Of a stretch of 45,419 nt of DNA, positions 4,732 through 23,123 are shown one piece after another (positions within the stretch are counted from its first letter, which is position 1; the number at the start of each line of letters is the position of its first letter). The position numbers were made by a program, and so were the translations under genes. Origin of the DNA: Candidatus Wolfebacteria bacterium (lineage in GTDB: Bacteria > Patescibacteriota > Minisyncoccia > Phycocordibacterales > Phycocordibacteraceae); assembly GCA_002400985.2 (NCBI GenBank), contig NVRX02000006.1, positions 169,368 through 214,786 of the forward strand. The letters run 5' to 3'. Under the pieces are notes generated by a model. It made no database searches. It was not told the origin of the DNA and saw nothing but the letters and a program-made list of their open reading frames with translations.

Positions 4732-5785
4732 GGATTATTACAAAATTTTAGATGTAGAGAAGTCTGCAACACATACAGATGTGAAGAAGGCTTTTCGTAA
4801 GCTTGCTCAAAAGTACCATCCAGATAGAAAGACTGGAAATGAAGCAAAGTTTAAAGAAGTTTCTGAAGCCTATAGTGTTATTGGAAATGAACAGAAGCGA
4901 AAAGAGTACGATTCATACGGAAAGACCTTTGGGGGCGGGCAACAGCAAGGTGGCGGTTTTGATTTCTCAGGATTCCAGCAAGGAGGGTTTGGTGGAGGTA
5001 TCGATATAGAAGACATTCTTCGAGGTTTTGGTGGTGGATTTGGACAGCAACAGCAACAGGTACGAAAGGGAAGAGATATTTCTATGGATATTGAAGTATC
5101 TTTCAAAGATTCTATTTTTGGAACCCAAAAGAAGGTACTCATTGCAAAAGTATCAAAGTGTTCAGAATGTGACGGATCTGGAGGAAAGAAAGGAACCTCT
5201 ATGAGTACGTGCGCTGCATGTAATGGGCAGGGGAAAGTGCATCAAACACAAAATTCATTCTTTGGAGCATTTCAAACAGTTGTTGAGTGTATTGAATGTG
5301 TAGCGACAGGAAAGGTTCCAAAAGAAAAATGTAAAGACTGTAGAGGTGCTGGAGTACGAAAACAGGAGGAAGAAATAACGGTAACAATACCTGCGGGAAT
5401 CAATGCTGGCGAGATGATTCGCATGGGTGGACTTGGGGAAGCTGTTAAAAACGGTACTCCTGGGGATTTATATATTAAGGTCCACGTAACGCCGCACGAG
5501 CTCTTTAAGAGAAGTGGGGTCAACTTGGTGGTAGAAGTGCCACTGAAGCTAACTGATGCACTCTCAGGGACTGTATACAACCTAACCACACTTGAAGGAA
5601 AGAGGCTTGAAGTAAAGATTAGTCCTTTGAAAAAAACGGAGGAAACCCTTCGTGTAAAAGGGTATGGAGTACCACAAGGATCAGCTCGAGGCGATATTTA
5701 TTTGAAACTATCAGTATCTCTTCCACAGAAGCTCTCTTCTAAAGCGAAGGACCTTGTGTCACAATTAAAAGAACATGGACTCTAA
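4724..5785 (+). CDS. dnaJ: Chaperone DnaJ
   Basis: J domain with HPD, G/F-rich linker, four CxxCxxxG zinc-finger repeats. Confidence 0.98.
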
Positions 5786-6308
5786 CCTAAGTTTTGAAGC
5801 TGCAGGAGAACTATTTCAAGCTACTACTGCAAATGCAGGGAACTTCGTAAATGATTTTCTTCTAATCATTATTCTTGTAGGGCTGATGCTTTTCTTCATG
5901 TTCCGAAGTGGAAGGAGAGGAGTTGTTGCCCTTACTATGGCAGTGTATATTGGCATTTCTTTATACGAACTTTTCCCATTTAAGGAAATGGTACTTGAAG
6001 CTGCTGCAGATTCTCCGATGGCGAACCTTGCACTTATGGCAATAATGCTTATCGCTCTTACAACTTTCCCATACATTGTATTAAAACGCGTTGTGGTTAC
6101 TGATTTCTTAGGGAGATTGGGAATTGTATTTCTATTAATCGTTTCATTCCTTCTTACTGCAACATTATTGGCAAGTGCATACCATATTCTCCCTATACGA
6201 GAGTTTTATGCATTTACCCCAGCGCTTGATGCGCTCTTTGCGCCAAAAGAGTTTTTCTTCTGGTGGTTTATCTCTCCACTAGTTGCTTTATTCGAGATGG
6301 CGAAGTAA
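5775..6308 (+). CDS. Hypothetical integral membrane protein (about 5 TM)
   Basis: Highly hydrophobic ORF overlapping the dnaJ stop. Confidence 0.8.
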   Translation: MDSNLSFEAAGELFQATTANAGNFVNDFLLIIILVGLMLFFMFRSGRRGVVALTMAVYIGISLYELFPFKEMVLEAAADSPMANLALMAIMLIALTTFPYIVLKRVVVTDFLGRLGIVFLLIVSFLLTATLLASAYHILPIREFYAFTPALDALFAPKEFFFWWFISPLVALFEMAK

Positions 6309-6382
6309 GTCAAATTGCATAAAAAGCTATTGATTCTTTGCTAAAAAAGTGCCATAGTATCTAATACTATTCGAACTGCACT

Positions 6383-7897
6383 ATGAATGAAGATTTAATA
6401 AAGCTCCAAAAAAATCAATTGAAAAGGCTTCCGAATCTCCTGAAAAAGCAAAATTCAGATTATTGGATTAAGGCAGGAAATAAAGAAAAACTGCGTCTTT
6501 TTCATGCGGTTGCAGAAAACGTACCTGCGTATAAAGATTTTCTGCAGAAAAATAAATTGGACCCACGGACAATAAAGACAGTAGAAGATTTAAAAAAAGT
6601 TCCTACAATTGATAAAGATAACTATTTACGAGCATATCCACATGAAGATCTGATGTGGAATGGCACTTTAAAGAAACCTCTTACAATTCATGCCACGTCT
6701 GGATCAACAGGGGAGTCAACCTACTTTGAAAGAGAACTCTCATCAGACTTAAAAAGAGCTTTTATTGTAGATTCTTTTTATAAACAAAATAAAAAAACTA
6801 CCGAAGGACCAACTTTATTTATAGTTGCTTTCGGAATGGGTATTTGGTCTGCTGGAATGGGTATTTATACAGGAGTATATCTTGCTGGACAAATACACCA
6901 GTACCCAGTTTCAATTATCACGCCAGGAGTAAGTAAAGAAGAGGTGTTAAAAATATTAAGAAACATTGCACCAAGGTTTAAGCAGGTCATCATTGCAGGC
7001 TATCCTCCTTTTGTTAAGGATGTAATTGACGAAGCTCAATCTGAAGGAATTCCTTTAAAGAATTTCAATTTAAGATTTATTTTTACAGGAGAAGCCTTCA
7101 CAGAGGAGTTTCGAGATTATCTATCAAATCGAGCTGATGTAAAAAATGTTCTTTTAGACACAATGAATACATATGGAACTGCTGAGCTTGGACCCATGGC
7201 TGTTGAAACACCTCTTGTTATATTAATTCGTCGTCTAACAGATAAAAAAATATTCTCAAAACTTTTTGGTGATATTACAAAAACTCCAACTCTCACACAG
7301 TATATTCCAAATTTTGTAAACTTTGATTGTGAAAATGGGGAACTTTTATTTACAGGCGATAGCACGATACCTTTAGTGCGCTATCGTTCAGGAGATCACG
7401 GAGGCATTCTTACTTATAAAGAGGTTGCAGGAAAACTCAAAAAACAAGGCGTTGATTTAGAGAAAAAATGTAAAGAGGCGGGAATTACTGACTATATATC
7501 ACAATTACCAATGGTGTATGTATATGAACGTAAAAATCTTGCGGCAACATTGTATGGAATCCTAATATATCCAGAGTTTGTAAAGTCAGCTGTTTTGCAT
7601 CCGACATTTTACGATATTCTTACCGGAAAATTTACCTTAGTCCAAAAGTACGACAAAAAACAAGACCAATATTTAGAGGTTAATTTAGAATTAAGAAGTG
7701 GTGCTGATCCAACTTCGAAACAGAAAGCTCTTATCCAAAAACGCATTTTAAACGTTCTTAAAAAAAGAAGTTCTGAATTTAAAGAGCTTTGTAAAAATTT
7801 GGATGAAAGAGTACACCCCAGAATTGTTTTTTGGAAAAATGAAGATCCAAAGTTTTTTACACCTGGTTCTAAACAAAAATGGGTGCAAAAAACCTAA
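6383..7897 (+). CDS. Phenylacetate-CoA ligase (PaaK)-family adenylate-forming enzyme
   Basis: VPAYKDFL, TSGSTG P-loop, GYPPF, TGE, YGTAE, PLVRYRSGD motifs of the ANL/PaaK family. Confidence 0.85.
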   Translation: MNEDLIKLQKNQLKRLPNLLKKQNSDYWIKAGNKEKLRLFHAVAENVPAYKDFLQKNKLDPRTIKTVEDLKKVPTIDKDNYLRAYPHEDLMWNGTLKKPLTIHATSGSTGESTYFERELSSDLKRAFIVDSFYKQNKKTTEGPTLFIVAFGMGIWSAGMGIYTGVYLAGQIHQYPVSIITPGVSKEEVLKILRNIAPRFKQVIIAGYPPFVKDVIDEAQSEGIPLKNFNLRFIFTGEAFTEEFRDYLSNRADVKNVLLDTMNTYGTAELGPMAVETPLVILIRRLTDKKIFSKLFGDITKTPTLTQYIPNFVNFDCENGELLFTGDSTIPLVRYRSGDHGGILTYKEVAGKLKKQGVDLEKKCKEAGITDYISQLPMVYVYERKNLAATLYGILIYPEFVKSAVLHPTFYDILTGKFTLVQKYDKKQDQYLEVNLELRSGADPTSKQKALIQKRILNVLKKRSSEFKELCKNLDERVHPRIVFWKNEDPKFFTPGSKQKWVQKT

Positions 7898-7916
7898 TAA
7901 CTGTTAGATTAATAGT

Positions 7917-9038
7917 ATGGAAAACCCAATCATAATAAATCCTAAAGAGAAAAATTTAGAAAAAATAAAAAAAGAGTATTCACCAGACCATATAATCGAC
8001 ACCTACGAGCTACAACTTGAGGACCTTTATCAAATTAGAAACCCTCAATCAAAGTTCATGAAGGATTTCAGCAATGAACTAAAAAAGTTCATTGAAGAAC
8101 ACTCGCAAGGTGATTCTCTTGAGGATTGTGGTAGATGGGTTTATTTTCCCTGGAATAAAACACTTGTGCATTATCTTGAAGATGAAACTCATCAGGAGAT
8201 ACGTACGGCACGTAATAAAAATATTATTACCAAAGAAGAACAGGATAAATTTTATAATTTTAGTATTGGTGTTGCCGGCCTTAGTGTAGGAGGGCACAGT
8301 GCCTTAACAACCACACTTATGGGCGGAGCTGGAGAAATTCGCCTTGCTGATCCTGATGTTATTTCCCCAACAAATCTTAATCGAATACGTTTTGATTTCA
8401 GTCACGTTGGAAGAAATAAAGCAGACCTTGTTGCTGAGTATGTATACCAGCTAAACCCATACAATAAGGTCCATGTATTTGATGAAGGAATTACTGAAGA
8501 AAATATTGGTGACTTTCTAGACGGGTTGGATCTTCTGGTTGAAGAACTCGATGATATCGTAATGAAGGTAAGGCTTCGAGAAGAAGCTAAAAAGCGTGGC
8601 ATACCTGTGATTATGGCAACAGACAATGGGGATAATGTTATTTTGGATGTTGAACGTTATGATCTCAATCCCGATTATCCAATTTTCCATGGAAATCTTG
8701 ATGGTTTTGATTTGAAAGAACTTAAAGACTCTCCTCAAAAAATGTTTGAAGCAATGGGAAGAATCATTGACATAACTCTCGTACCAATTCGAGTCCAACA
8801 TTCTATTCATGAAGTTGGGAAGACCATCTATTCATGGCCGCAGCTTGCTTCAGCAGCAACCTTGTCAGGGGTGGTTATTGCCTACACAGCAAGAAGAATT
8901 GCTCTTGGACAGAAAGTAAAAGAAGGTAAGCTTGAGATAAATATTGAATCTGCAATTGATCCAGACTACCCACAAGTAAGAGAAGTACAATTAAAAGAGG
9001 CACAAAAATTCTTGAAGATGCTTGGAATTAAACAATAA
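7917..9038 (+). CDS. ThiF/E1-like adenylyltransferase, Rv1355c/OxzB N-terminal type
   Basis: WVYFPW, RTARNKNIIT.EEQ, VAGLSVGG, LADPD...TNLNRI, D.ERYDL.P, SWPQLAS. Confidence 0.88.
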   Translation: MENPIIINPKEKNLEKIKKEYSPDHIIDTYELQLEDLYQIRNPQSKFMKDFSNELKKFIEEHSQGDSLEDCGRWVYFPWNKTLVHYLEDETHQEIRTARNKNIITKEEQDKFYNFSIGVAGLSVGGHSALTTTLMGGAGEIRLADPDVISPTNLNRIRFDFSHVGRNKADLVAEYVYQLNPYNKVHVFDEGITEENIGDFLDGLDLLVEELDDIVMKVRLREEAKKRGIPVIMATDNGDNVILDVERYDLNPDYPIFHGNLDGFDLKELKDSPQKMFEAMGRIIDITLVPIRVQHSIHEVGKTIYSWPQLASAATLSGVVIAYTARRIALGQKVKEGKLEINIESAIDPDYPQVREVQLKEAQKFLKMLGIKQ

Positions 9039-9054
9039 AATACATTTATCGCTT

Positions 9055-10101
9055 ATGAATAAAGAATTATTACAAAAGATTATTGAAGCAGGAAATATTG
9101 CACCGTCAGGAGGTAATTCACAGCCTTGGAAATTTCATGTACGAGGAGATGAAATTGATGTAATTGCACTTCCTGAAAAAGATCATGCGGTTTTGAATGT
9201 AAAAAACAGGGGAACATATATAGCAAATGGAGCACTGCTAGAGAATATTAGTATAATGGCCAAATCTCTCGGGTACAGAGCAAATTTTCAAATATCTACA
9301 GATGAGGAAGTTCTTGCAAAGGTGTCATTTTCTGATTCGGTAAAAGATAATGAGCTTGCGCCGTACTTAGAAAGTCGTCATTCTAATAGAAAGCCTTATA
9401 TAAAAGAGACTCTTTCAAAAGAACAAAAAGAATATTTGTTTGCCAGAGAAGAAGATTATGAAAACTGCACTATTGCTATTGTTGAAGGAGAATCAATAGA
9501 ACCTGCAGCAAAGATTCTATCGTATGACATCTCTCTTAATATGCAAAATAAATGTCTCCATAAAATGCTTTTCGAAGAAGTTTTATGGAAAGAAGAAGAC
9601 CAAAAAGATAAACCAGGATTATATGTAAAAACAATGGAAACGGAACCTCCAAAGTCTTACATGTTTAGACTTTTAAAAAATTGGAATGTTGCAAAGTTTT
9701 TTACTAAAATTGGGCTTATTGAAAAGATTCAAAGTGAAAATACAAAAACTACTTCCAGCGCTGCTTTAATAGGTGCAATTATTGTCTCAGATAATAATCA
9801 AGACTTTGTTTCTGCGGGAAGATTTCTTGAAAATATTTGGTTACGAGCAACAAAACTTGGTCTATCGATGCATTTGAGTGCTGCTGTATCTTTTTTGGGT
9901 CAACAAGTAGAAGCTGGTGAAGAATCTTGTTTTTCAAAAACAGAGGTTGATCTATTAAAGAAATTAAATGTTCAGTTAAAATCTTCTTTTAAGGTTCCAG
10001 AGGGAAAGCTAATTTCAATCGCATTTCGACTAGGGCGTGGAGAAGATCCTTTGGCAACATCCTATAAGAGGTCTCCAGAGATTGAGTGGAGTAAGTCATA
10101 G
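9055..10101 (+). CDS. Nitroreductase-fold protein, Rv1355c/OxzB C-terminal (Acg-like) type
   Basis: APSGGNSQPW, G.LLEN, RHSNRKPY, GRFLENIWLRATKLGLS, FRLG; ATG 9055 preferred. Confidence 0.82.
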   Translation: MNKELLQKIIEAGNIAPSGGNSQPWKFHVRGDEIDVIALPEKDHAVLNVKNRGTYIANGALLENISIMAKSLGYRANFQISTDEEVLAKVSFSDSVKDNELAPYLESRHSNRKPYIKETLSKEQKEYLFAREEDYENCTIAIVEGESIEPAAKILSYDISLNMQNKCLHKMLFEEVLWKEEDQKDKPGLYVKTMETEPPKSYMFRLLKNWNVAKFFTKIGLIEKIQSENTKTTSSAALIGAIIVSDNNQDFVSAGRFLENIWLRATKLGLSMHLSAAVSFLGQQVEAGEESCFSKTEVDLLKKLNVQLKSSFKVPEGKLISIAFRLGRGEDPLATSYKRSPEIEWSKS

Positions 10102-10134
10102 AAGTTATCTCACAGTACGTTATTATATAAGTAC

Positions 10135-11769
10135 ATGTTTGAGTTTTTGCTAAACTTTCAAAATTTAGATCTTTTTTCTGTTGGTGCTGCAGTAGCGGGT
10201 ATGTTACTACTTGGTTTTGTTGTTCTCTTTGGAGACGTTAAAAGTGCAACAAACCGTACTTTTTTATGGCTCACAATTACTGCCAGTGCTTGGGGGATGG
10301 TTAATTATGCTGTATATCAACCTTTTTACTCGGAAGATTTTTCTTTAATATTACTGCGTATAGCAGTATTTTTCTCTGTTTGGGCTGCTTTTTCTACATT
10401 TACTTTTATTTATGTTTTCCCTAATAAAAAATTAGAATTATCGTGGCCTTATGTATATGTTCTTATTCCAATAACAATCTTTGTATCTTTTATTGCATTA
10501 ACACCGTTTGTATTTCAAAGCGTAACTGAACTAACTGCAGGAGGTAGTATTTTAACAGTGTTAAATGGCCCGGGTATTTACCTTTATGGAGCTCTCATAA
10601 CTTTTTTTAATGCAGGAAGTGTAATCCTTTTAATTAAAAAATTGTTAAAGAAAGATGAAAAACAAAATAAACAACTTCAACTAATTTTAGTTGGCGTAGC
10701 ATTAATGTTGGCCTTGATAACAACTTTTAATTTTATCCTTCCCGCTTTCTTTAATAATTCTAGCTTTATTGCTTTAGGAGGAATTTTTCAATTCCCATTC
10801 ATAGTCCTTGCTTCGTATGCAATACTTCGGCATGGATTATTCAATGTAAAAGTAGCAGGAGCAGCACTTCTTGTTCTAGCTTTGTCAGTTTTAACTCTTG
10901 GAGAGGTTATAAACGCTGGTACCTTAGGTCTTGTTCTTTTTAGAATTAGTATTTTCATATTAGTTTTGATATTTGGCATAAACTTAATTAGAAGTGTGAT
11001 TAGAGAAGTGAAACAGAGGGAAAGAATTGAAAAGCTAGCAAAAGATCTTGAAGTTGCAAATAAAAGATTAAAAGAACTTGACCGACAAAAATCAGAATTT
11101 GTTTCTATTGCATCACACCAGCTGCGAAGTCCTATTACCGCAATACGTGGATATATTTCTCTCATTATAGAAAAAGAGTTTGGAGATTATCCGCAAGCTA
11201 TTCGAGAGCCACTAGATCGTATTTTAGAGTCTAGTCGTCTCATGGTTAAGTCTATTGAAGATTACTTAAATATATCTCGCATTGAACAGGGGAGAATGAA
11301 ATATGAAATGAGCGATTTTGATATATCAAAATTATCTAAAACTGTCGTTAATGAATATAAGCCTATTGCTGACAAGAAAGGTCTAGACATAATGTTTAGC
11401 GGCCCAGAAAAAAATATGGTCCATGCTGATATTGGAAAAATAAAACAAGTTATTGCAAATCTTGTAGACAATTCAATAAAGTATACTCCAGCTGGAAATA
11501 TAAATGTAAAAGCAACCGCCTTTGAGGGTAAGGCAAGAATTACTGTTTCTGACACAGGAGTGGGTCTTGAAAAGGAGGACCTTGGTGACCTATTTAATAA
11601 ATTTGTACGTGCTCGTGGCGCAAATAAAATTAATACTTCAGGAACAGGTCTTGGACTTTATGTAGCAAAACAAATGATAGAAGCTCACAAAGGGAAGATA
11701 TGGGTAGAGTCTGATGGAAAAGGGAAAGGTTCAAGATTTATTTTTGAACTTCCAATAGCTACTTCTTAG
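10135..11769 (+). CDS. Membrane sensor histidine kinase (multi-TM N-terminal region, HisKA, HATPase_c)
   Basis: About 9 hydrophobic segments; H-box IASHQLRSP, N-box NLVDNSIKY, DTGVG, GTGLGL. Confidence 0.93.
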   Translation: MFEFLLNFQNLDLFSVGAAVAGMLLLGFVVLFGDVKSATNRTFLWLTITASAWGMVNYAVYQPFYSEDFSLILLRIAVFFSVWAAFSTFTFIYVFPNKKLELSWPYVYVLIPITIFVSFIALTPFVFQSVTELTAGGSILTVLNGPGIYLYGALITFFNAGSVILLIKKLLKKDEKQNKQLQLILVGVALMLALITTFNFILPAFFNNSSFIALGGIFQFPFIVLASYAILRHGLFNVKVAGAALLVLALSVLTLGEVINAGTLGLVLFRISIFILVLIFGINLIRSVIREVKQRERIEKLAKDLEVANKRLKELDRQKSEFVSIASHQLRSPITAIRGYISLIIEKEFGDYPQAIREPLDRILESSRLMVKSIEDYLNISRIEQGRMKYEMSDFDISKLSKTVVNEYKPIADKKGLDIMFSGPEKNMVHADIGKIKQVIANLVDNSIKYTPAGNINVKATAFEGKARITVSDTGVGLEKEDLGDLFNKFVRARGANKINTSGTGLGLYVAKQMIEAHKGKIWVESDGKGKGSRFIFELPIATS

Positions 11770-12538
11770 ACTCTTTGCTAATACGTTTTGCCTCACTATG
11801 TGCAAGATCAAAGATATTTTTTGACATTTGTGCAATTTCTTTATCTTCAATAATTACTGCTGTTCCACCATTAGCGCTATTCATGTAGGCGATTTTGTCA
11901 TCATAAATTGCATAATCAGAGGTAAAATCAAAAGATTTAGAAGGAATAAGTACTGCATCATCACGCGCTGTTTTACTAGATTTCATAGACATGAGAATTC
12001 TTCCAAGTTTATTGTCTGGGTGTATACCAATCATTTTTATTCCTAGTTCTGCTCTTTTGTCTATATACTTAGGCATATATAAAGGTAGTAGTTTACTTAT
12101 TTTTAAAACAGAAGAAGCAATGCGTATTACTTTTTCTTTTGTTTGAAGAGAGTCTTCAAATGTTGCTATTAAACCTTTTCTGCCTTCATAAACTCTAACC
12201 TTGGGCTTGCTCCTCGTGTCTTTGTGAAGGGCTTTTAACTCAGGAAGTATTTTGTGTAAACCTTCCTTAATAAGATTTTTCTCTTGAATGGTAGATTCAA
12301 TTTCTTGAATAAGGATTTCAGGATTAGTGGCAATATACTGTTTTACACTCTTGTCTTCAGAGATGCTTACCAATCCTTTGTTGAGTAGGGAATCAAGCAC
12401 CACATATGTAGAGCTTCGATTTACATCAGCTCGTTCTGCCACTTCATTAGCTGTTGCTACCTCAAGTTCAATAAGAGCAACGTATACTTTTGCCTCCTTT
12501 TCACTCAGCCCAAATTTTTCTAATTGCTTAGTTAACAT
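11759..12538 (-). CDS. TrmB-family transcriptional regulator (N-terminal wHTH, C-terminal PLD-like effector domain)
   Basis: GLSEKEAKVYVALI...RSSTYVVLDSLLNKGLV, PKVRVYEG..G, IYDDKIA. Confidence 0.88.
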   Translation of the reverse strand: MLTKQLEKFGLSEKEAKVYVALIELEVATANEVAERADVNRSSTYVVLDSLLNKGLVSISEDKSVKQYIATNPEILIQEIESTIQEKNLIKEGLHKILPELKALHKDTRSKPKVRVYEGRKGLIATFEDSLQTKEKVIRIASSVLKISKLLPLYMPKYIDKRAELGIKMIGIHPDNKLGRILMSMKSSKTARDDAVLIPSKSFDFTSDYAIYDDKIAYMNSANGGTAVIIEDKEIAQMSKNIFDLAHSEAKRISKESKK

Positions 12539-12549
12539 ATGTAATTACG

Positions 12550-12732
12550 TGTTGGTTATATACAACATAAAAGCAGACTATTTGACATAATGCAAATATT
12601 GTTGTTGGAGACTAACAACAATATTGAAATAACCCTTTAACTAAAAGCTTTAAAACTGTTTGTTTCTGTTGGCTTGTTTTGACAGCTTAAATACTTTTAT
12701 TGCGTTGTTTTTGTTAAATATTTACGACATTT
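12550..12732. promoter_or_regulatory. Four TGTTR-N8-YRACA (TGT-N12-ACA) operator-like boxes between the divergent trmB-like and vanX-like genes
   Basis: 12550 tgttg-gttatata-caaca; 12603 tgttg-gagactaa-caaca (inside a perfect 12-bp inverted repeat 12595-12625); 12667 tgttg-gcttgttt-tgaca; 12712 tgtta-aatattta-cgaca. Confidence 0.75.
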
Positions 12733-12740
12733 CTAAATAG
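12679..12740 (+). repeat. Direct repeat copy 1 (about 60 bp; copy 2 at 14919-14982)
   Basis: 12704-12732 is identical to 14944-14972 (29 nt); flanks similar; offset 2240 nt. Confidence 0.92.
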
Positions 12741-12780
12741 GGCAAAATTTATTTTGGATGTTCTATGAAAGGAGCTCAAA

Positions 12781-13587
12781 ATGTCTACAAATACAAAAAA
12801 CTCACTTTGCATGGAGTCAGCAATGCAAATAATTTCCTCCAATACTCAAAAAGCATACGCAAAAAGATCTTGGAAGGAAGTTCCCATTATTGCAAGCAAA
12901 GAACCCTTAATAAGTCTTCCGTCTGCAATATCTTCTCCTTACTATTCAAAAGTAATGAATCTTGGGGGCGGAAACACAATATATCTTAGAGAAAGTGTCT
13001 TAACTTCTTTGAATGAGGCGCGAGATAAATTACTTTCTCTCGGTTATGATTTACAAGTTTATGATGGTTGGAGGTCTGTAGAACTTCAAGAAGAACTTTT
13101 TTGGTTTTATATGAAGAAGTTCACTATTGAACTGTTTCCAGAAATAAAACACTTATTTGAGAAGGCTATAAGAATTTCTCAAATAAAAAACTGTTTTTAT
13201 GAATTGCCAATCATGAAGCAAAAGCTTGTAAAGAAAGCGAATTGTGAATACGTAAGTTGGCCGTCAAAAGACCCTATGGTTCCAAGTCCTCACTCTACTG
13301 GGGGCGCTGTAGATGTCTGGCTTTACAAGGATGGCAAGGCTTTAGATTTTGGCGTTCCCTTTGACTGGATGGAAGATTCAGCTGGGGCTTTCTATCATCT
13401 AAAAAAGAATCGAAAAAGATTTCCCAATGATTCTGAAGTCTGCAGGAACAGGACTCTGTTAACTTTGTCTATGGAAAGTGTTGGGTTTTCTTGTTATCCG
13501 TCAGAATTTTGGCACTTTAATCTGGGTAACCAGATGGATGGTCTTGTTAAGAATACAGACGCTTTGTATTCTTATATTGAACCATAA
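12781..13587 (+). CDS. D-Ala-D-Ala dipeptidase, VanX/DdpX family (peptidase M15D)
   Basis: YDGWRS..LQ, SPHSTGGAVD (SxHxxGxAxD), SEFWHF (ExWH); AAGGAG SD. Confidence 0.88.
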   Translation: MSTNTKNSLCMESAMQIISSNTQKAYAKRSWKEVPIIASKEPLISLPSAISSPYYSKVMNLGGGNTIYLRESVLTSLNEARDKLLSLGYDLQVYDGWRSVELQEELFWFYMKKFTIELFPEIKHLFEKAIRISQIKNCFYELPIMKQKLVKKANCEYVSWPSKDPMVPSPHSTGGAVDVWLYKDGKALDFGVPFDWMEDSAGAFYHLKKNRKRFPNDSEVCRNRTLLTLSMESVGFSCYPSEFWHFNLGNQMDGLVKNTDALYSYIEP

Positions 13588-13590
13588 TCT

Positions 13591-13621
13591 AACGGAGGGC
13601 AATTATGCCCTCCGTTTCTCT
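13591..13621 (+). terminator. Hairpin, probable terminator between vanX-like gene and ddl
   Basis: Perfect aacggagggca-atta-tgccctccgtt stem; short T tail. Confidence 0.7.
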
Positions 13622-13638
13622 ATGATAATATATTTAAA

Positions 13639-14688
13639 ATGCCAAAACGTAAAATAATACTTTTTTTTGGAGGAGAATCAGAAGAGCATAAAATTTCAAT
13701 TCTTTCTGCAAAAAACATATTGAGAGCAATAGACAAAGATAGATATCAGGTTTGTTTGGTTGGCATCACAAGGAGTGGTGTGTGGCGAAGAATAGAGCCA
13801 GCTCAATTATTAGACAGCTCGTATGACGAAGTTGAGGATAAAGACTCTGAAACTGAAGTACTTTTTTCTTTTAGTAAAAAAATGTTTTGTTTTGTTAAAA
13901 AAGGAAGTAAACAATGGATTAAGTTTGATAATGCTTTCCCAATTCTACATGGAAAGAACGGGGAAGATGGGACAATTCAAGGTTTTCTTGAAATTGCAGG
14001 AATTAATTATGTTGGCGGAGACGTTCTTGGCTCCGCAATTGGAATAGACAAAGAAATTTCTAAAAAAATATTACAACAGGCAGATTTATTAGTTGCAAAA
14101 TATCTTACAATTCAAAGTTCTGAAAAAACCCCAACTTATCAGACTGTATCAAATCTTCTAGGAAGATCTCTTTACGTAAAGCCAGCACGCTCAGGGTCCT
14201 CTTTAGGAGTGTCTAGAGTAGAAAATGAAAAACAGTATAAGGAAGCGCTGAAAGCTGCACACAAGGTCGATTCCAAAATTATTGTAGAAGAGAATATTAT
14301 TGGGCGAGAGATTGAATGTGCAGTACTTGGCAACTTACTACCAAAAGTTTCGACACTAGGAGAAGTGCTTGTAAAAGACAGGTTTTATAGTTATGAGGAA
14401 AAATATAATGCCACTTCTACAACTAAAGTAATAATTCCTGCAAAACTAACTGAACAAGAAGCTCTTACTGCAAAGAAATTAGCAATGCAAGCATATAAAG
14501 TCTTGCGTTGCAGAGGTCTTGCTCGTGTGGATTTATTTTTCTCAAAAAATATTTTTTATGTGAATGAGATAAATACAATGCCAGGTTTCACTAATAAAAG
14601 TATTTACCCAAAACTATGGGAAGACAAAGGCCTTTCATATAAAGAACTTGTAACTTGCTTGTTAAAGCTTTCTGATGAGAAAAAATAA
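13639..14688 (+). CDS. ddl: D-alanine--D-alanine ligase (DdlA-like)
   Basis: FGGESEEH.IS, LHGKNGEDGTIQG, KPARSGSSLG, FYSYEEKY, ARVD, NEINTMPGFT. Confidence 0.93.
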   Translation: MPKRKIILFFGGESEEHKISILSAKNILRAIDKDRYQVCLVGITRSGVWRRIEPAQLLDSSYDEVEDKDSETEVLFSFSKKMFCFVKKGSKQWIKFDNAFPILHGKNGEDGTIQGFLEIAGINYVGGDVLGSAIGIDKEISKKILQQADLLVAKYLTIQSSEKTPTYQTVSNLLGRSLYVKPARSGSSLGVSRVENEKQYKEALKAAHKVDSKIIVEENIIGREIECAVLGNLLPKVSTLGEVLVKDRFYSYEEKYNATSTTKVIIPAKLTEQEALTAKKLAMQAYKVLRCRGLARVDLFFSKNIFYVNEINTMPGFTNKSIYPKLWEDKGLSYKELVTCLLKLSDEKK

Positions 14689-14787
14689 CTAGTGTTTCTA
14701 TTTAATAGTTTGACAGATTTATTGTCGAAGGTTCTTTTTGCTAAAAGTAGAGAAACACGACGCATAAAGAAATTAATTTATACGCTG

Positions 14788-14982
14788 TGTTAGTTATTCA
14801 CAACATAAAAACATGTCATTTAATATAGCTCTGCCTATGTTAGATATAGTCTAATGGTGACATATTCTAATGTCTTTTATACAAGCCATGATAAGTCACT
14901 AGTAGATGTGGGTGTATCTTGACAAAATAAATAGTTTTGTTGTGTTGTTTTTGTTAAATATTTACGACATTTTCTAAAATAG
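14788..14982. promoter_or_regulatory. Second regulatory region with three TGT-N12-ACA boxes, including direct repeat copy 2
   Basis: 14788 tgtta-gttattca-caaca; 14907 tgtgg-gtgtatct-tgaca; 14952 tgtta-aatattta-cgaca; 14787-14810 matches 12549-12572 at 21/24 nt. Confidence 0.75.
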
Positions 14983-15049
14983 TAGTTTTACTTAAAGAGA
15001 AAGGCATTCTGCTTTTCTTAAAACTGTTCTTTACAGAAAGGAGGACACA

Positions 15050-15547
15050 ATGCGTACCAATTTACGTATCGTTGAAGACATTGATACTCAACTTTGTAAT
15101 GCAGCAAAATTATATGGTCAAATGCAAGAGTATTCGAACAAAGGTCTTCTAAATAAGTTGATCGAGGACGGATACTCACGCCATGATGCAAAAGAACTTA
15201 TTGACGATGTCAAAAAGTTTCTTGCATTAGCCGCAAGTGTTTCAGAAGCTATTGCTCCAACAAAAGCACTGGATATTGGATGGCACGCCTTTATTCTCTT
15301 TACAAGGGAATATAGTAAGTTTTGCTTACGGTATTGTGGTTGGTTTATACACCATGAACCAGTTGATAAAGAGTCTGATTTACCAGACTATGAAATGTTG
15401 CCACGAACAAAAAAGCTTGCAAAAGCTGCCTTTGGTGCACTTTCTAAAAATTGGGAAGTTACAAAAGGTCAAAATGATGTCGATTGCAACCCTATTGGGT
15501 GTCAAGACAAAGAATGTTCAGTTCCTGACTGTTCATCAAATCAGTAA
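15050..15547 (+). CDS. Glycine-rich domain-containing (GRDP/DUF1399-like) protein with C-terminal CX4CX4CX4C tail
   Basis: KKFLAL...P...LDIGWHAFILFTREYSKFC...FIHHEP family signature; tail CNPIGCQDKECSVPDCSSNQ; AAGGAGG SD. Confidence 0.75.
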   Translation: MRTNLRIVEDIDTQLCNAAKLYGQMQEYSNKGLLNKLIEDGYSRHDAKELIDDVKKFLALAASVSEAIAPTKALDIGWHAFILFTREYSKFCLRYCGWFIHHEPVDKESDLPDYEMLPRTKKLAKAAFGALSKNWEVTKGQNDVDCNPIGCQDKECSVPDCSSNQ

Positions 15548-15551
15548 TACT

Positions 15552-15590
15552 GTGGGCGCATGTACACGTGTGTATATGCGCCCACTTTTT
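15552..15590 (+). terminator. Intrinsic terminator after GRDP-like gene
   Basis: gtgggcgcatgtac...gtatatgcgcccac long stem followed by TTTTT. Confidence 0.8.
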
Positions 15591-15601
15591 ATACTAAGAA
15601 T

Positions 15602-16180
15602 ATGAAATGGGATAAATATTTAACAAACACAGAAAATGGTCCGGCTAGGATTCTTTTAAAAGAATCTATTAAGTATTTAGAAATTTACTCAAAACCAAAA
15701 GCGTTGGACTTGGGTGCGGGATCTCTAAACGACACAAAATTCTTATTAAAAAAAGGATTTGATGTTGTTGCCGTTGATTCAAACAAAAAAGTTAAAGAGT
15801 TGGCAAAACATTTACCAAAAGAAAATTTTGAAATGAACGTATCTTCTTTTGATAAATATGATTTCAAAAAAAATTCTTTCAATATTGTTAATGCCCAGTA
15901 CGCTCTTCCATTTAACAGTCCTAAAACTTCTAATAAAGTAATTTCTGATATAAAAAACTCAATTAAAAGTAATGGAATTTTTGTTGGACAGTTTTTTGGG
16001 ATAGAAGATGATTGGTCAGATATAAAAAGTATGACATTTCATGCTTTGGAAGATGTAGAAAGTTTTTTTGAGAAAAACTGGGTTGTGCATAAACTTGAAG
16101 AAGAAAAACAATTTAAAAAAACAGCGGCTGGTAAAGACAAATATTGGCATGTCTTTCATGTTATTGCGCAGAAAATTTAA
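15602..16180 (+). CDS. Class I SAM-dependent methyltransferase (TehB-like)
   Basis: ALDLGAG motif I, VVAVD, GIFVGQFFG, KYWHVFHVIAQK; ATG 15602 follows TATACT. Confidence 0.85.
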   Translation: MKWDKYLTNTENGPARILLKESIKYLEIYSKPKALDLGAGSLNDTKFLLKKGFDVVAVDSNKKVKELAKHLPKENFEMNVSSFDKYDFKKNSFNIVNAQYALPFNSPKTSNKVISDIKNSIKSNGIFVGQFFGIEDDWSDIKSMTFHALEDVESFFEKNWVVHKLEEEKQFKKTAAGKDKYWHVFHVIAQKI

Positions 16181-16181
16181 A

Positions 16182-16799
16182 ATGCTCAAAATACAAATAA
16201 AACACAATAGATTTTTAGATCCGGTTTTTTGGTGTCATTTTCAACAACGTTTTAAAATAACAATTTTAAAACGAGAAACTCAAGATGAAATAGATCTTAT
16301 TATAAAAGAATACAAAGAGACCTGGTTCAAAAATGAAAAGAAGATTTTAAAAGCAATACAGCAAATAACAAAATTGACTTTTAAGCACTCTCTTATTGAT
16401 GTACATATTGTTCGTAGAATAGATCGGAGTTTTAGTAGGCCTATAATTTTTGATATAAGAAAAGCTCCAGAAAATTTTTGTGATCAACTAACTCACGAGT
16501 TATTACACATAATTCTCCAAGAAAATAATAATATTGTTTCTTGGGAGGTTTTAGAGTGGTTAAACGAGAGGTTTCCAAAAGAAAGTGACACAACAAGAAA
16601 TCATATTTTTATTCATGCGGTTTTAAAGAAAATCTATATAAATATCTTAAAGAATCCTAAACGCCTTAAGGAAAACATGAAGCGATCACAAGGCCACCAC
16701 AACAATGATTATGTGAGGGCCTGGGAGATTGTAGAAGAGTATGGAGAAGATGAAATAATCAAAATGTTTACAAAATATTACAGAAGTGTAAACGCTTAA
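16182..16799 (+). CDS. Hypothetical protein with HExxH motif (putative zinc metallopeptidase fold)
   Basis: LTHELLH plus downstream NHIFIHA; ATG 1 nt after the upstream stop. Confidence 0.6.
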   Translation: MLKIQIKHNRFLDPVFWCHFQQRFKITILKRETQDEIDLIIKEYKETWFKNEKKILKAIQQITKLTFKHSLIDVHIVRRIDRSFSRPIIFDIRKAPENFCDQLTHELLHIILQENNNIVSWEVLEWLNERFPKESDTTRNHIFIHAVLKKIYINILKNPKRLKENMKRSQGHHNNDYVRAWEIVEEYGEDEIIKMFTKYYRSVNA

Positions 16800-16840
16800 A
16801 TAAAATCAATAACTTTCCTCTGTGCTGTATACTTCTGAAC

Positions 16841-18589
16841 ATGCAAGACATACCCAGCAAACCTTTTAAGTTTCTAATATTTTCCAGCAAGCCATACAAA
16901 GGCTGGGCTTTTTCTGCACTTCTCGCGGTAACTATTGCAGAGGCACTTGCAACACTCCTGCCGTACTTTTTTGGAAAAATTGTAGATGCTGCAAATTCAG
17001 GGGAAAGTTTTGATGAGGTACAATTTTGGCTTCTTATAACCACGGCAACTCTTGCTCTTACGTATGTTGCATGGCGTAGTTCAGATTTTTTAGGAATGCA
17101 GTGGGTAACAAGAGCTAATGCATATAGTTACAAAAAGTTATTCTCGTATCTTTCAGGTCATAGCCATTCATACTTTGGTAACCGTTTTGCAGGGGCTTTA
17201 AGTAATAAAGTTTCAAATGCATCTGATGGAGCATCAGGCCTTACAGAAAGCATTCTTTGGCAATATTACAGCACCATACTTTCAATTTTATTCTCAGGAA
17301 TTCTTATTTTTATTGCCAATGTATATTTGGGATATATTTTTGTGATGCTCATTACAGCACTTATCATTCTAAATTACATACTAGTACTGATGCGAAAAAA
17401 ACACGTAATCAAATATGTAAAGGAAAACTCAACGCTACGTGGACAAGCTGTTGATATAGCAACAAATATGGACGCTGTGCGTGTTTTTGCACAAGGAAAT
17501 TTTGAGAAATACTTCCTTGGAAAACAAATTGACAAAAGACGTATCGCAAACATAAGGCAGTGGCGCTTTAGTGAGTACATTCTTGTATTAAACAATATAA
17601 TTATTGTTGCAGCAGTTGGTGGAATGTTCTTCTTGTTACTTAATCTTTTTGAAAAAAACGAAGTAACTTTAGGAGTGTTTGTTATGGTTCTTACGCTCGT
17701 ATTTAATTTATCTGGGACTCTATCTTACATTGGAAGTATGATGAATGGCTTTATTCGTAGGTATGGAGAAATTGAAGAAGGTCTTTCTGAAATTCTTCTT
17801 CCACACGATATTGTAGACATGAAAGGTGCAAAGAAGCTTTCTGTAACAAATGGATCACTTTCATTTGAAAACATGGCCTTTGCTTACAACAAAGAGAATG
17901 TTTTTACAGATTTTAATCTGTATATTGCACCTGGAGAAAAAGTTGGGATTGTAGGTCCTTCTGGAGCAGGAAAAACAACACTTATAAACCTGCTACTTCG
18001 CCAACATGATATAACAGGTGGTGCAATTAAGATTGATGGGCAAGATATTCTTCGGGTAACACAAGACAGTCTTCGAGAAGCTATTGCTGTTGTTCCGCAA
18101 GAATCACTTCTTTTTCATCGTTCAATACGGGAAAACATTGCATATGGAAACCAAAAGGCTACTCAAAAACAAATTGAAGAAGCTGCAAAAATGGCAGAGG
18201 CACATGATTTCATCATGGATACTCCTGAAAAGTATGATACTGAAGTTGGAGAACGTGGCGTAAAGCTCTCAGGCGGACAGAAACAGCGTATTGCAGTGGC
18301 TCGAGCAATGCTTAAGTCTTCACCTATATTAGTGTTAGATGAAGCAACAAGTGCACTTGATAGTGAAAGTGAGTCACTCATTCAAAAAGCACTCCATGAC
18401 CTTATGAAAAGAAAAACAGTGCTTGCGATTGCACATAGACTCTCAACACTGCGAGAGATGGATAAAATTATCGTTATGGAAAATGGTGTGATTGTACAAA
18501 GTGGGACACATCAAGAGTTAGTTGCTGAAGAAGGAAGTCTCTACGCAAGACTTTGGGCACATCAGGCAGAAGGATTTATAGCAGAATAA
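16841..18589 (+). CDS. ABC exporter, fused permease/ATPase (MsbA/MdlB-like)
   Basis: N-terminal TM domain, GPSGAGKT, LSGGQKQR, LVLDEATSALD, IAHRLST. Confidence 0.95.
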   Translation: MQDIPSKPFKFLIFSSKPYKGWAFSALLAVTIAEALATLLPYFFGKIVDAANSGESFDEVQFWLLITTATLALTYVAWRSSDFLGMQWVTRANAYSYKKLFSYLSGHSHSYFGNRFAGALSNKVSNASDGASGLTESILWQYYSTILSILFSGILIFIANVYLGYIFVMLITALIILNYILVLMRKKHVIKYVKENSTLRGQAVDIATNMDAVRVFAQGNFEKYFLGKQIDKRRIANIRQWRFSEYILVLNNIIIVAAVGGMFFLLLNLFEKNEVTLGVFVMVLTLVFNLSGTLSYIGSMMNGFIRRYGEIEEGLSEILLPHDIVDMKGAKKLSVTNGSLSFENMAFAYNKENVFTDFNLYIAPGEKVGIVGPSGAGKTTLINLLLRQHDITGGAIKIDGQDILRVTQDSLREAIAVVPQESLLFHRSIRENIAYGNQKATQKQIEEAAKMAEAHDFIMDTPEKYDTEVGERGVKLSGGQKQRIAVARAMLKSSPILVLDEATSALDSESESLIQKALHDLMKRKTVLAIAHRLSTLREMDKIIVMENGVIVQSGTHQELVAEEGSLYARLWAHQAEGFIAE

Positions 18590-18591
18590 AT

Positions 18592-19149
18592 ATGAATTAT
18601 CCAAAATACTTTGCAACAGGAAACAGGAACAAATTACGTGAAGTGAACAGCATTCTTGAAGAAAAATTAGAACAAATCGATCTTGACCTTGTAGAGATTC
18701 AATCTACAGACGTTATTGAAGTTGTAAAAGCAAAAGCAATACAGGCTTATAAAGAAACAGGAAAGATTGTTCTTGTAGAAGACACAGGACTTTCTTTTGT
18801 TGCTTGGAATAACTTACCAGGGGCTCTCATTAAATGGTTCTTAGAAGAAGTTGAACTTTCTGAGATAATAAAAATGCTTGAAAGTTTTGAAAACAAAGAA
18901 GTTGTTGCGCATACAGCCTTTTGTTTCTTCGACGGTAGCAAAACACATATTTTTGAGGCAAAAATAAAAGGAAGTGTGGCGAAAGAAATTAAAGGCGAAG
19001 AAGGTTTCGGCTGGGATGCTTTATTTATTCCTGAAGGAGGTACAAAAAGTTTTGCCGAAATGAACCCTGAAGAAAAAAATAAAATATCTATGCGTCGCCT
19101 TGCATTAGAAAAACTGGCCAACATCTCTGTTGGCCAGCCTACTTCTTAA
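18592..19149 (+). CDS. rdgB: Non-canonical purine NTP pyrophosphatase (RdgB/HAM1/ITPase)
   Basis: ATGNRNKLRE, VEDTGL, LPGALIKWF, FGWDALF.P, EKNKISMR. Confidence 0.9.
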   Translation: MNYPKYFATGNRNKLREVNSILEEKLEQIDLDLVEIQSTDVIEVVKAKAIQAYKETGKIVLVEDTGLSFVAWNNLPGALIKWFLEEVELSEIIKMLESFENKEVVAHTAFCFFDGSKTHIFEAKIKGSVAKEIKGEEGFGWDALFIPEGGTKSFAEMNPEEKNKISMRRLALEKLANISVGQPTS

Positions 19150-19733
19150 AACGGATCTTCCATCCTATACTTTTTCTTATATTCTTTCCATACAGGGAGA
19201 AAATTTTCTGGAAAAAGTTCGAAATGAACCTCGTCACATACTTTACCTCTCCGAATATGTTCACCTTTGAAAACAGCAACACGTTTATGTCCTGTTTTTT
19301 CGAGATAACGCATACTGCGTGGGTTAGTTGAAATTACAGAACTTCTAATTTTTCGAAGGTTTCGAAAGTAGAAAGCATAATAGAGCTGAAGCATTTTTGC
19401 CTCTGTGCCGTATCCTTTGTCGCAAAACTCAGGATCAAGCACCGCTCCGGTAACTGCAACACCGTCAGGTCTCAAATGAAGTCCAATGTGCCCAATATAT
19501 GTACTGGGCTCACCAGAATTCTTTTTAAGAATGGCAAAAACAATATCTGTCTTTGACTCTTCCAGACTATCCAACCATTCTTTTTCAGATTTGAGTGAAA
19601 GCGGTGGAACAGCAAGAAGGTACTGGGATACACGCACATCATTTATAATGCGAGTAACGTGTGTCAGATAGCTACTCTGCATTAACCCAAGGTCAATACG
19701 ATTACCGCGTAAGATAATTACATGATCAGTCAT
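19146..19733 (-). CDS. GNAT N-acetyltransferase, RimJ/RimL family
   Basis: DKGYGTEA (motif A), NLRKI...NPRS.RYLEKTG; AGGAG SD before ATG 19733. Confidence 0.85.
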   Translation of the reverse strand: MTDHVIILRGNRIDLGLMQSSYLTHVTRIINDVRVSQYLLAVPPLSLKSEKEWLDSLEESKTDIVFAILKKNSGEPSTYIGHIGLHLRPDGVAVTGAVLDPEFCDKGYGTEAKMLQLYYAFYFRNLRKIRSSVISTNPRSMRYLEKTGHKRVAVFKGEHIRRGKVCDEVHFELFPENFLPVWKEYKKKYRMEDPF

Positions 19734-19770
19734 GTGATACTCCTGTTTTAGATTTAAAGAACAATGCTGT

Positions 19771-19907
19771 AAAAAAGCCTCATGCTTATATACAGCTGAG
19801 GCTTTTGGAGGTTTCTTCAAGAGATTCAGCTACATACAAACATTACAAAGTCGGCCCTTTGCTAGGGATACTTCTGTAATATTCATATATGTGCTGAATA
19901 AATTCAT
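19771..19907 (-). promoter_or_regulatory. Candidate attenuator leader: 25-aa uORF (19907-19830) in a long hairpin, followed by an intrinsic terminator
   Basis: TTGACA-16-TACAGT promoter; uORF MNLFSTYMNITEVSLAKGRLCNVCM; terminator gcctca...tgaggc-TTTTTT upstream of the GNAT SD. Confidence 0.6.
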
Positions 19908-20074
19908 ACTTTTACTGTACCTAATATAAAAAACTTGTCAATAATCTCAATTCATATACTATAGAGAGATAAATTATGCAGTCACAAAATCATCATACGC
20001 ATATCTCTCATATTGAAGCGCTCAATAGCGCTCGTAAGATGCGTGCTTGAGCACAAAGCTTAACAACTAAATAA

Positions 20075-20902: not shown

Positions 20903-20930
20903 ATGCAAAAGAATTTGCTACACTACACAC

Positions 20931-22163: not shown

Positions 22164-22210
22164 TCAACACTCTTTACATTCTTGACACTAATAACTGCTA
22201 TACTTTATAT

Positions 22211-23020: not shown

Positions 23021-23065
23021 CTCTCCCGCCATCAGGCATCGTGGGTTCGAGTCCCTCTCGGCGCA
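22984..23065 (+). tRNA. tRNA-Tyr (GTA); CCA not encoded
   Basis: Acceptor GCGTCGA/TCGGCGC-A; anticodon arm GGAGA-CTGTAAC-TCTCC; long variable arm; GGGTTCGAGTCCC T arm. Confidence 0.93.
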
Positions 23066-23076
23066 CAACATAAAGA

Positions 23077-23104: not shown

Positions 23105-23123
23105 CTTATATAAGCACCAGTCT

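Follow-up and report, generated by a model that had tools for sequence, protein, structure and literature searches.

Can a locus of four genes in a Patescibacteria genome both build a small molecule and sense it? We examined this question in a 45,419-nt stretch of DNA (hereafter the window; G000:C1:169368-214786) taken from a metagenome-assembled genome (MAG) of 592,536 bp in 7 contigs, which is 95.3% complete. Its closest relatives among public genomes are MAGs of Patescibacteria, or Candidate Phyla Radiation (CPR), and the nearest of them is UBA3533 (81% ThiF identity). Genomes are designated by G-numbers (the source genome is G000) and compared loci by L-numbers. Within the window, four open reading frames (ORFs) on the + strand span positions 6383-11769 and encode, in order, a ligase, a ThiF-like protein, a flavin oxidase, and a histidine kinase. 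The intergenic gaps are 19, 16, and 33 nt (16 if the oxidase begins at ATG 9055), in agreement with the initial annotation of this DNA, which had described four co-oriented genes with gaps of 16-33 nt.

We propose that these genes form a biosynthesis and sensor cassette that operates as a signal-receptor circuit, and we assign this whole statement a probability of about 0.45. Its biosynthetic part, namely that the cassette builds an oxazolone-like small molecule, is probable. Oxazolone synthetases were discovered only recently (PMC12856293). If the proposal is correct, oxazolone chemistry is tied to a dedicated membrane sensor across many ultra-small, mostly uncultivated lineages, which gives a first concrete, testable hypothesis of oxazolones as signals and an uncommon opportunity to learn how CPR bacteria, dependent on hosts as they are, might perceive one another or those hosts. 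Because all parts of the cassette are small and expressible in E. coli, the question is directly testable. A literature search found no paper on this cassette, while supplements of the oxazolone papers might include CPR sequences. The points newly made here are a ligase-kinase core, missing acyl-donor metabolism, a polymorphism between congeners whose breakpoint falls within the kinase gene, a protein that belongs to no known family (protein X), and pilus-linked receivers.

Enzymes of the cassette

The ThiF-like protein matches the NCBIfam model NF005901 (“Rv1355c family”) at positions 24-344 of 722 (321.7 bits, 9.4e-96), and it also matches the Pfam ThiF family (1.5e-23). The oxidase matches the same model at positions 370-713 (160.2 bits, 6.7e-47), and the two proteins jointly cover positions 24-713. 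Other matches of the oxidase are PRK14851 (1e-43), the Acg-type flavin mononucleotide oxidoreductase family NF047509 (3.1e-34), and Pfam Nitroreductase (2.5e-11). Together with the Pfam matches of the kinase given below, these results uphold the domain calls of the initial annotation for ThiF, nitroreductase, and kinase. The next-best ThiF model for the ThiF-like protein is PRK08223 (90.2 bits), which we take to be a MoeW/TyzB-like model; at 321.7 bits for the Rv1355c model against roughly ≤90 bits for any other ThiF model, the protein is set apart from the MoeB/TcdA enzymes.

Across 27 homologues of the ThiF-like protein, residues G121, S123, V124, G125, D145, D147, N153, N155, R156, K168, D212, and 233-240 are invariant, and D212 aligns with a conserved Asp of TcdA. 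The oxidase has A16, S18, N21, Q23, W25, R108, R112, G188, G255, R325, and G327 invariant in 24 homologues; a sequence search of the PDB with this protein gave no match. Its ORF is open from TTG 9022 (359 aa), and the start at ATG 9055 (348 aa) fits the N-termini of its homologues in the alignment. Because the P-loop, the Arg finger, D212, and the flavin-site motif are invariant, both proteins are predicted to be active. The two are encoded as a fusion in 9 related loci. Judged by their sequences, the ThiF-like protein and the oxidase are the predicted two halves of an oxazolone synthetase of the TrzS/OxzB/TyzB+TyzC type.

In the characterized systems, TrzS (Rv1355c) is a fusion of a ThiF cyclase and a flavin oxidase that converts N-acyl tryptophan, supplied by the acyltransferase TrzA, to N-acyl tryptazolone through an ATP-dependent cyclization and an O2-dependent desaturation (PMC12856293). 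The founding oxazolone synthetase is OxzAB of Pseudoalteromonas rubra (bioRxiv 10.1101/2020.06.11.147165; review PMC12596934). In the tyrazolone pathway TyzA-TyzC-TyzB (Rv2336-Rv2338c), the intermediate is an N-acyl aromatic amino acid, and the cyclase and oxidase activities belong to separate proteins, TyzB and TyzC (PMC10404671); the separation of ThiF and nitroreductase, which the initial annotation had contrasted with fused enzymes, is therefore not unusual and already present in a characterized pathway. TrzAS, TyzACB, and OxzAB are described as obtaining their substrate from an N-acyltransferase of the FeeM/LuxI fold that uses acyl-coenzyme A (acyl-CoA).

The cassette has in common with TrzA-TrzS (Rv1356c-Rv1355c) of mycolic-acid bacteria a ThiF cyclase and an Acg-type oxidase of the same NF005901 family. 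It differs in having the two domains as separate genes, with a PaaK-fold ligase before and a histidine kinase after them, and no TrzA/FeeM-like acyltransferase was found in its 0.59-Mb CPR genome. Split genes for the cyclase and the flavin-dependent oxidase are common to the cassette and TyzA-TyzC-TyzB, as far as the latter is described, whereas that pathway relies on an acyl-CoA donor via TyzA and has no sensor kinase; moreover, the ThiF-like protein scores far higher with the TrzS-type model than with PRK08223. OxzA-OxzB likewise combines ThiF and nitroreductase and makes oxazolones from N-acyl amino acids, but OxzB is described as a fused protein partnered by an N-acyltransferase, in contrast to the separate genes and the ligase found here. 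The available passages of the OxzAB preprint and of a 2025 ThiF review contain neither “histidine kinase” nor “Patescibacteria,” and in those of the preprint “ligase” appears only in a reference title. Thus, among the hallmarks of an oxazolone synthetase locus, the cassette has a cyclase of the TrzS/OxzB clade and an adjacent flavin oxidase but no acyltransferase of the FeeM/LuxI fold. For lack of the latter, we count it as a variant form of the oxazolone pathway rather than a true member. It is a real new variant, widely conserved and not an ordinary one.

The ligase is recognizable mainly by its fold. A Pfam search gave no match, and its matches to the PaaK and F390-synthetase models of NCBIfam all fall below the curated cut-offs (PaaK TIGR02155, 7e-20 and 70.9 bits against a cut-off of 646.3; NF041878, 69.7 bits against 700). 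A profile of 32 sequences, on the other hand, retrieved PaaK from the PDB (2y4o, E 9.7e-19), and a Foldseek search with the AlphaFold2 (AF2) model of the ligase (predicted local distance difference test [pLDDT] 89.7) placed PaaK2 first (E 1.1e-22), followed by BT_0428, NatL2, AjiA1, and ClxA. The original designation as a PaaK-like ligase is thus supported at the level of fold and unsupported at the level of curated sequence families. Residues S106, G107, and G110 of the P-loop, Y264, G265, D338, and G340 are invariant in 32 homologues, and K497 is nearly so. The sequence and the model indicate a two-domain ANL/PaaK fold with adenylation motifs. This fold (Foldseek E 1e-22 to 1e-14), the P-loop, the Tyr-Gly motifs, and the near-C-terminal Lys are common to the ligase, PaaK, and the PaaK-like ester and amide ligases NatL2, AjiA1, and ClxA; the ligase of the window is, however, only 14-19% identical to PaaK-type ligases, is about 70 residues longer, and has no paa catabolic genes nearby. 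NatL2, AjiA1, and ClxA are PaaK-fold enzymes that form esters or amides without CoA.

That no FeeM-like gene is present and that a PaaK-fold enzyme takes its place had been noted from the outset, and searches of the source genome with PF13444 and PF21926 for FeeM-type acyltransferases indeed gave no match. The same genome gave no match to PF00550, PF01121, PF01855, or PF01515 (acyl carrier protein [ACP], CoaE, PFOR, and Pta), families that were matched in most control genomes. With neither ACP nor CoaE found, an acyltransferase dependent on acyl-CoA or ACP would have no donor. An ATP-dependent ligase that acts on a free acid would need none and would suit this genome, in which no FeeM-like enzyme was found either.

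We therefore hypothesize that the ligase is a CoA-independent activator of free acids. It would adenylate a free acid and transfer it straight to the amino group of an amino acid, yielding an N-acyl amino acid and standing in for the acyl-CoA- or ACP-dependent N-acyltransferase. The ThiF-like protein would then adenylate the carboxylate of the N-acyl amino acid and close a 5(4H)-oxazolone, and the flavin oxidase would desaturate the latter with O2, as in the characterized systems. We suggest with less confidence that the adjacent nine-helix kinase has the hydrophobic product or a closely related compound as its ligand, which would make an autoinducer-type circuit, and that the kinase acts via stand-alone receivers on pilus or attachment behavior. 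If the ligase acts in this way, it would provide N-acyl amino acids by a new route that needs no CoA.

Recurrence of the cassette and its ligase-kinase core

With the ThiF-like protein as a query, 80 loci were fetched, and tblastn searches over them detected the ligase in 71, the oxidase in 73, and the kinase in 67. According to ORF maps, 45 of the 80 loci carry an uninterrupted series of ligase, ThiF, oxidase (some of these fused), an optional methyltransferase or hydrolase, and kinase; contig ends or inserted genes break the order in most of the other 35. The four genes therefore do co-occur elsewhere, and their arrangement is far beyond chance. The lineages that carry the cassette bear the labels Saccharibacteria, Paceibacteria, Kaiser-, Lipton-, Magasanik-, Doudna-, and Gracilibacteria. 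In an evenly drawn sample of 301 CPR genomes, the ligase (E ≤ 1e-20) was found in 33 and ThiF (E ≤ 1e-30) in 26, all 26 of which are also ligase positive. The cassette is thus patchy (~9% of the sampled CPR genomes) yet phylogenetically wide.

This distribution bears on the possibility that the ThiF-like protein carries out housekeeping chemistry of the MoeB/ThiF/TcdA kind (sulfur carrier, molybdopterin, thiamine, or tRNA ct6A) next to unrelated genes. TcdA is its best solved relative by sequence (1.1e-9), and the ThiF, MoeB, and TcdA models of NCBIfam do match it. These matches reach only 32-72 bits against the 321.7 bits of the Rv1355c family, though, and a gene found in 26 of 301 sampled genomes, never apart from the ligase and seldom apart from the oxidase, does not have a housekeeping pattern; we consider this explanation extremely improbable.

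Linkage between the ligase and the kinase was assessed by comparing the coordinates of their matches, and a kinase was counted as near if it lay within 2.5 kb on the same strand. By this measure, 27 of the 33 ligase-positive genomes have a match to the seven-transmembrane (7TM) kinase near the ligase. As for the remaining six, the kinase lies at 5-6 kb in two, is adjacent by tblastn or ORF inspection only in two, and was not detected in two. The ligase-kinase pair is the most constant unit of the cassette, and it is kept where the TrzS-type ThiF and the oxidase lie elsewhere or are absent. Variant orders are ThiF-ligase-kinase (L093-L095), small canonical ThiF (263-276 aa)-ligase-kinase-receiver (L088, 4971-9301; L089, 4220-8937), and S-adenosylmethionine methyltransferase-ligase-kinase (L087, 4126-7286; L100, 4136-8907). 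The variant cassettes of L087, L088, L089, and L100 have no nitroreductase-type oxidase.

Accessory genes were counted upstream of the ligase in the 57 non-Streptomyces loci with at least 1.3 kb of DNA 5′ of it. The gene directly 5′ encodes a short ELFV amino acid dehydrogenase in 16 loci, a HisC-like aminotransferase in 13, and other proteins in 28. The best NCBIfam match of the dehydrogenase is tryptophan dehydrogenase ScyB, below the cut-off. Enzymes of both types interconvert amino acids and 2-oxo acids, and in none of 66 loci do they occur together. In relatives, the acid used by the ligase would probably be a 2-oxo or aryl acid that the dehydrogenase or aminotransferase encoded 5′ of the ligase produces from an amino acid with an aromatic or branched side chain. 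Between the oxidase and the kinase, 8 loci have a methyltransferase-like gene and 3 an alpha/beta hydrolase, and directly 3′ of the kinase, 4 loci (L012, L034, L036, and L037) have an ABC exporter. To judge from these assignments, the accessory genes fit small-molecule biosynthesis.

The same genes can be set against the modification of a peptide or protein, in which the ThiF-like protein would adenylate a C-terminus in the manner of a pathway for ribosomally synthesized and posttranslationally modified peptides (RiPPs) or of an E1 enzyme, the oxidase would dehydrogenate an azoline-like ring, and the ligase would add an acyl cap. In thiazole/oxazole-modified microcin pathways, an E1-like protein works together with a dehydrogenase of the nitroreductase type, and the E1-like proteins MccB and PaaA, which act on peptide C-termini, are both among the weak PDB matches of the ThiF-like protein. 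Nevertheless, gaps of 19, 16, and 33 nt are too small for a precursor gene, the source genome gave no match to YcaO (PF02624), and the accessory genes encode amino acid-converting enzymes, with no proteases or leader-binding proteins. The scores of the ThiF-like protein and the oxidase also mark them as halves of TrzS, a small-molecule enzyme, by a wide margin over other ThiF models. Peptide modification is, in our estimate, very unlikely.

Sensor kinase, congener polymorphism, and proposed output

The kinase consists of a membrane sensor (residues 1-299, including HisKA_7TM [PF16927], 1.3e-7 and 32.2 bits against a cut-off of 28.6) followed by HisKA (PF00512, 1.1e-14) and HATPase_c (PF02518, 3.4e-28). 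The AF2 model of residues 1-300 (pLDDT 91.1) has nine helices and one beta-hairpin loop of ~25 residues (127-144) that, in the model, would face outward; the initial annotation, which called the sensor entirely intramembrane, needs correction on this point. A Foldseek search of the PDB with the sensor model returned only weak, generic matches to bundles of G protein-coupled receptors (best E 5.4e-3, TM 0.4-0.55), which we take to mean that the sensor has no solved homologue. A tree of 64 sensor domains contains a split (SH-aLRT 99) that places all 35 cassette kinases on the same side, together with 5 of the 9 variant-order kinases and 3 “unlinked” kinases. By this phylogeny, cassette-linked sensors appear as a subfamily of their own.

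The constancy of the kinase also bears on whether the product is a signal at all. It could instead be a non-signaling metabolite of the oxazolone type (a membrane lipid-like compound, an antimicrobial, or a host-bacterium effector), with a kinase that does not bind the product and only regulates the pathway or is inherited along with it. Five of the 80 loci come from Streptomyces and none of the five has the kinase; the ligase-ThiF-oxidase trio is present in L070, where a cytochrome P450 gene adjoins it, and in L079, where an ABC exporter gene does, as in an ordinary secondary-metabolite cluster. Known oxazolones have no proven signaling role, and the related N-acyl tyrosines are antimicrobial (PMC12856293). 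In addition, 7TM kinases are common in CPR genomes that have no cassette. Against this, the kinase stays beside the enzymes across very distant CPR lineages despite changes of gene order, cassette-linked sensors group together, and within the kinase it is the sensor half rather than the kinase half that changes along with the enzymes, as described below. We regard a non-signaling product as unlikely.

The kinases of G018 and G158, two of those scored as “unlinked,” are in fact linked: they follow a divergent ThiF and oxidase, which are preceded by protein X (341-355 aa, of no known family; L121:11214-12281 and L122:4190-5215, both on the - strand). Protein X stands where the ligase, along with the dehydrogenase, stands at the syntenic locus of the congener G071, whose gene order is oxidase-dehydrogenase-ligase-ThiF-hydrolase-kinase. 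Between G071 and its X-type congener, ten flanking genes are 55-94% identical, whereas ThiF is 27% and the oxidase 26% identical. Within the kinase, the sensor halves are 36.2% identical (94/260) and the kinase halves 73.1% (196/268). For the pair of X-type genomes, the corresponding values are 79.3% and 69.4%. Because the flanks and the kinase half are conserved and the rest has diverged, the unit that differs between congeners consists of the synthesis genes and the sensor half.

An exchange of PaaK with FeeM, which the initial annotation had envisaged, was not found as such; what replaces the ligase, in one genus, is protein X. Comparison of protein X with the ligase profile by hhalign was negative (probability 0.2), its Pfam searches were empty even at E 10, and profile searches of the PDB were empty as well. 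Its family has 223 representatives at E ≤ 1e-3 in a library of 1.84 billion proteins. One of 150 X relatives among the matches listed is fused to a ThiF domain (P0079), and one of 62 family members has a PF13444 match, outside the X region. The Atlas neighbors of protein X are GNAT/FeeM-like at 0.86-0.88, which is below the Atlas reliability line.

The polymorphism resembles what is known from peptide-signaling loci. The agr and comQXP pherotype loci likewise combine variable synthesis genes and a variable sensor half with a conserved kinase half and conserved flanks. The arrangement of synthesis genes beside a membrane histidine kinase receptor is common to our cassette, agrBDCA of staphylococci, and comQXPA of Bacillus, as a likeness of working and not of membership. 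It differs from them in that its presumed signal is a small heterocycle and not a peptide, that no response regulator is adjacent, and that the polymorphism is seen in one CPR genus. Across 35 complete loci, divergence of the enzymes correlates with that of the sensor half (Spearman 0.42-0.59; partial correlations 0.39-0.56) better than with that of the kinase half (0.25-0.38; partial 0.16-0.30), where the pairs compared are related, non-independent loci. These values support, and do not prove, a sensor half that tracks the enzymes better than the kinase half does.

A kinase that follows the enzymes could equally sense a substrate of the pathway. The kinase would then detect an external, host-derived aromatic or 2-oxo acid or an amino acid, that is, the substrate of the ligase, and the enzymes would convert this compound for detoxification, storage, or modification. 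Such a role would account for the tightest link being the one between the kinase and the ligase, the first and substrate-binding enzyme (27 of 33 genomes, even where ThiF and oxidase are missing), and the observed co-divergence of sensor and enzymes fits a shared substrate specificity just as well. The source genome is also without enzymes for making the acid, which must then be external. Yet two ATP-spending steps (ligase and ThiF) that end in a reactive heterocycle are unlike catabolism, the ABC exporters and tailoring methyltransferases of relatives suggest a finished, exported product, and many relatives make the acid within the cassette via the dehydrogenase or aminotransferase. Sensing and processing of an external compound hence seems to us a minority possibility.

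If the cassette is instead a signal-receptor circuit, its output has to be sought elsewhere in the genome, which encodes four receivers (G000:C1 11309-11710, 11718-12101, 18637-19047, and 129287-129667), all stand-alone domains. Two of them, in tandem, head a type IV pilus operon (PilB, PilC, and pilins) that ends in a MASE3 protein and a PAS kinase (762 aa, with FAD/NAD-binding and PAS domains). One receiver is flanked by PilB and PilT within a second pilus cluster, and the fourth follows a third kinase. This leaves the cassette kinase and the PilB-PilT receiver as orphans and, by exclusion, makes that receiver the foremost candidate for a partner of the kinase. Because the receivers are stand-alone and three of the four are inside pilus clusters, the output is more likely pilus function or attachment than transcription.

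Several points weigh against the proposed signal-receptor circuit. On the side of the sensor, the 7TM family is broad (84 of the 301 CPR genomes have a match, and 53 of these have no ligase), none of the four receivers adjoins the cassette in the window, and similarity fails to single out a partner, as receivers next to the cassette in relatives share 28-39% identity with several of those in the source genome and none stands out. The congener contrast comes from a single genus, and co-diversification of sensor and enzymes suits substrate sensing equally well. On the side of the enzymes, the presumed correspondence of D212 to the mutated Asp217 of TrzS is derived from the alignment to TcdA and from invariance, not from a direct alignment with TrzS. 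Most characterized PaaK relatives are CoA ligases, CoA could be scavenged, and the missing CoaE in a 95%-complete MAG is no proof of absence. Neither the ELFV dehydrogenase nor the HisC-like aminotransferase was found in the source genome, so that the acid would have to be scavenged. Finally, even in the characterized systems the physiological role of oxazolones is described as unsettled (PMC12856293). A still broader picture, of widespread pherotype-like cell-cell signaling in Patescibacteria, is that a CoA-independent PaaK-fold amide synthetase, ThiF, and the flavin oxidase make an oxazolone autoinducer wholly from amino acid-derived parts, that a cognate nine-helix kinase relays it to stand-alone receivers governing type IV pili and hence host attachment, and that close relatives exchange synthase sets and sensor halves jointly. 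This picture is speculative, and we would not expect it to hold in full.

Neighborhood of the cassette

Table 1. Positions of the cassette genes, of two downstream genes, and of the pilus clusters (window coordinates, except where a contig is given)
Feature	Position	Strand	Basis
PaaK-fold adenylate-forming ligase, 504 aa	6383..7897	+	PDB profile match, AF2 model and Foldseek
ThiF-like ATP-dependent cyclase, TrzS/OxzB (Rv1355c) type, 373 aa	7917..9038	+	NF005901, Pfam ThiF
Acg/TyzC-type flavin-dependent oxidase, nitroreductase superfamily, 348 aa	9055..10101	+	NF005901, Pfam Nitroreductase
Sensor histidine kinase, 544 aa	10135..11769	+	Pfam HisKA_7TM, HisKA, HATPase_c
TrmB-family transcription regulator, convergent with the kinase gene	11759..12538	-	Pfam TrmB 3e-19
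ABC exporter, fused transmembrane and nucleotide-binding domains, 582 aa	16841..18589	+	Pfam ABC_membrane, ABC_tran
Two type IV pilus clusters with stand-alone receivers (outside the window)	G000:C1:1518-12101, 14148-24304

The cassette is preceded by dnaK, dnaJ, and a gene for a 177-aa membrane protein of no family, and the TrmB gene overlaps the 3′ end of the kinase gene by 11 nt. In the closest relative, L002, dnaJ, the membrane-protein gene, the cassette, and TrmB follow in an order identical to that of the window. Identity between the two is lowest in the oxidase (55%) and in the sensor of the kinase (69%), and amounts to 75-83% in the ligase, ThiF, the kinase as a whole, TrmB, and DnaJ. 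The G+C content, followed over 6001-17000 of the window, is ~0.40 in the dnaK-dnaJ region and 0.33-0.35 over the cassette and the next 5 kb, and then rises again. Scans of 5700-12800 for promoters were uninformative (12 promoter-like sites against 23.3 in shuffles), and those for terminators were at chance level (4 found against 4.0 expected). The public sequencing runs listed were DNA runs from two studies, with no RNA run among them.

TrmB homologues are found near the cassette in 6 of the searched loci (L002, L005, L014, L016, L018, and L041), and the regulator is a possible partner of the cassette, not part of its core. The ABC exporter of the window, 5 kb 3′ of the cassette, is 38-41% identical to the exporters that follow the kinase in L012, L034, L036, and L037, and 8 searched loci have a homologue, directly after the kinase in 4. 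It might export the product; its link to the cassette is weak. We rejected as parts of the cassette an AstE/AspA-like deacylase, a GNAT protein, Ham1, a methyltransferase, and a VanX-like peptidase with Ddl, each of which occurs in 0-3 of the searched loci.

The gene for the AstE/AspA-type deacylase, from a family that hydrolyzes N-acyl amino acids, is located at 20075-20902, 8 kb 3′ of the cassette; a homologue near the cassette in L072 only makes this a weak link. Between the cassette and the exporter (12781-14688), a gene for a VanX-like M15 D-Ala-D-Ala dipeptidase stands directly 5′ of a D-Ala-D-Ala ligase gene, a pairing unusual outside van clusters. By tblastn of the related loci, the peptidase is present in none and Ddl in one (L063). 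Farther downstream, an ORF resembling a LAGLIDADG_3 homing endonuclease (22211-23020) overlaps the start of tRNA-Tyr (22984-23066), and the two are flanked by a TyrS gene (20931-22163) and a second gene for a class Ib (W/Y) tRNA synthetase (23610-24611). Elsewhere in the genome, G000:C1:1557-2246 and G000:C3:205774-206463 gave equal tblastn scores and identities, each at a contig end, which suggests that contigs C1 and C3 overlap or join at those ends.

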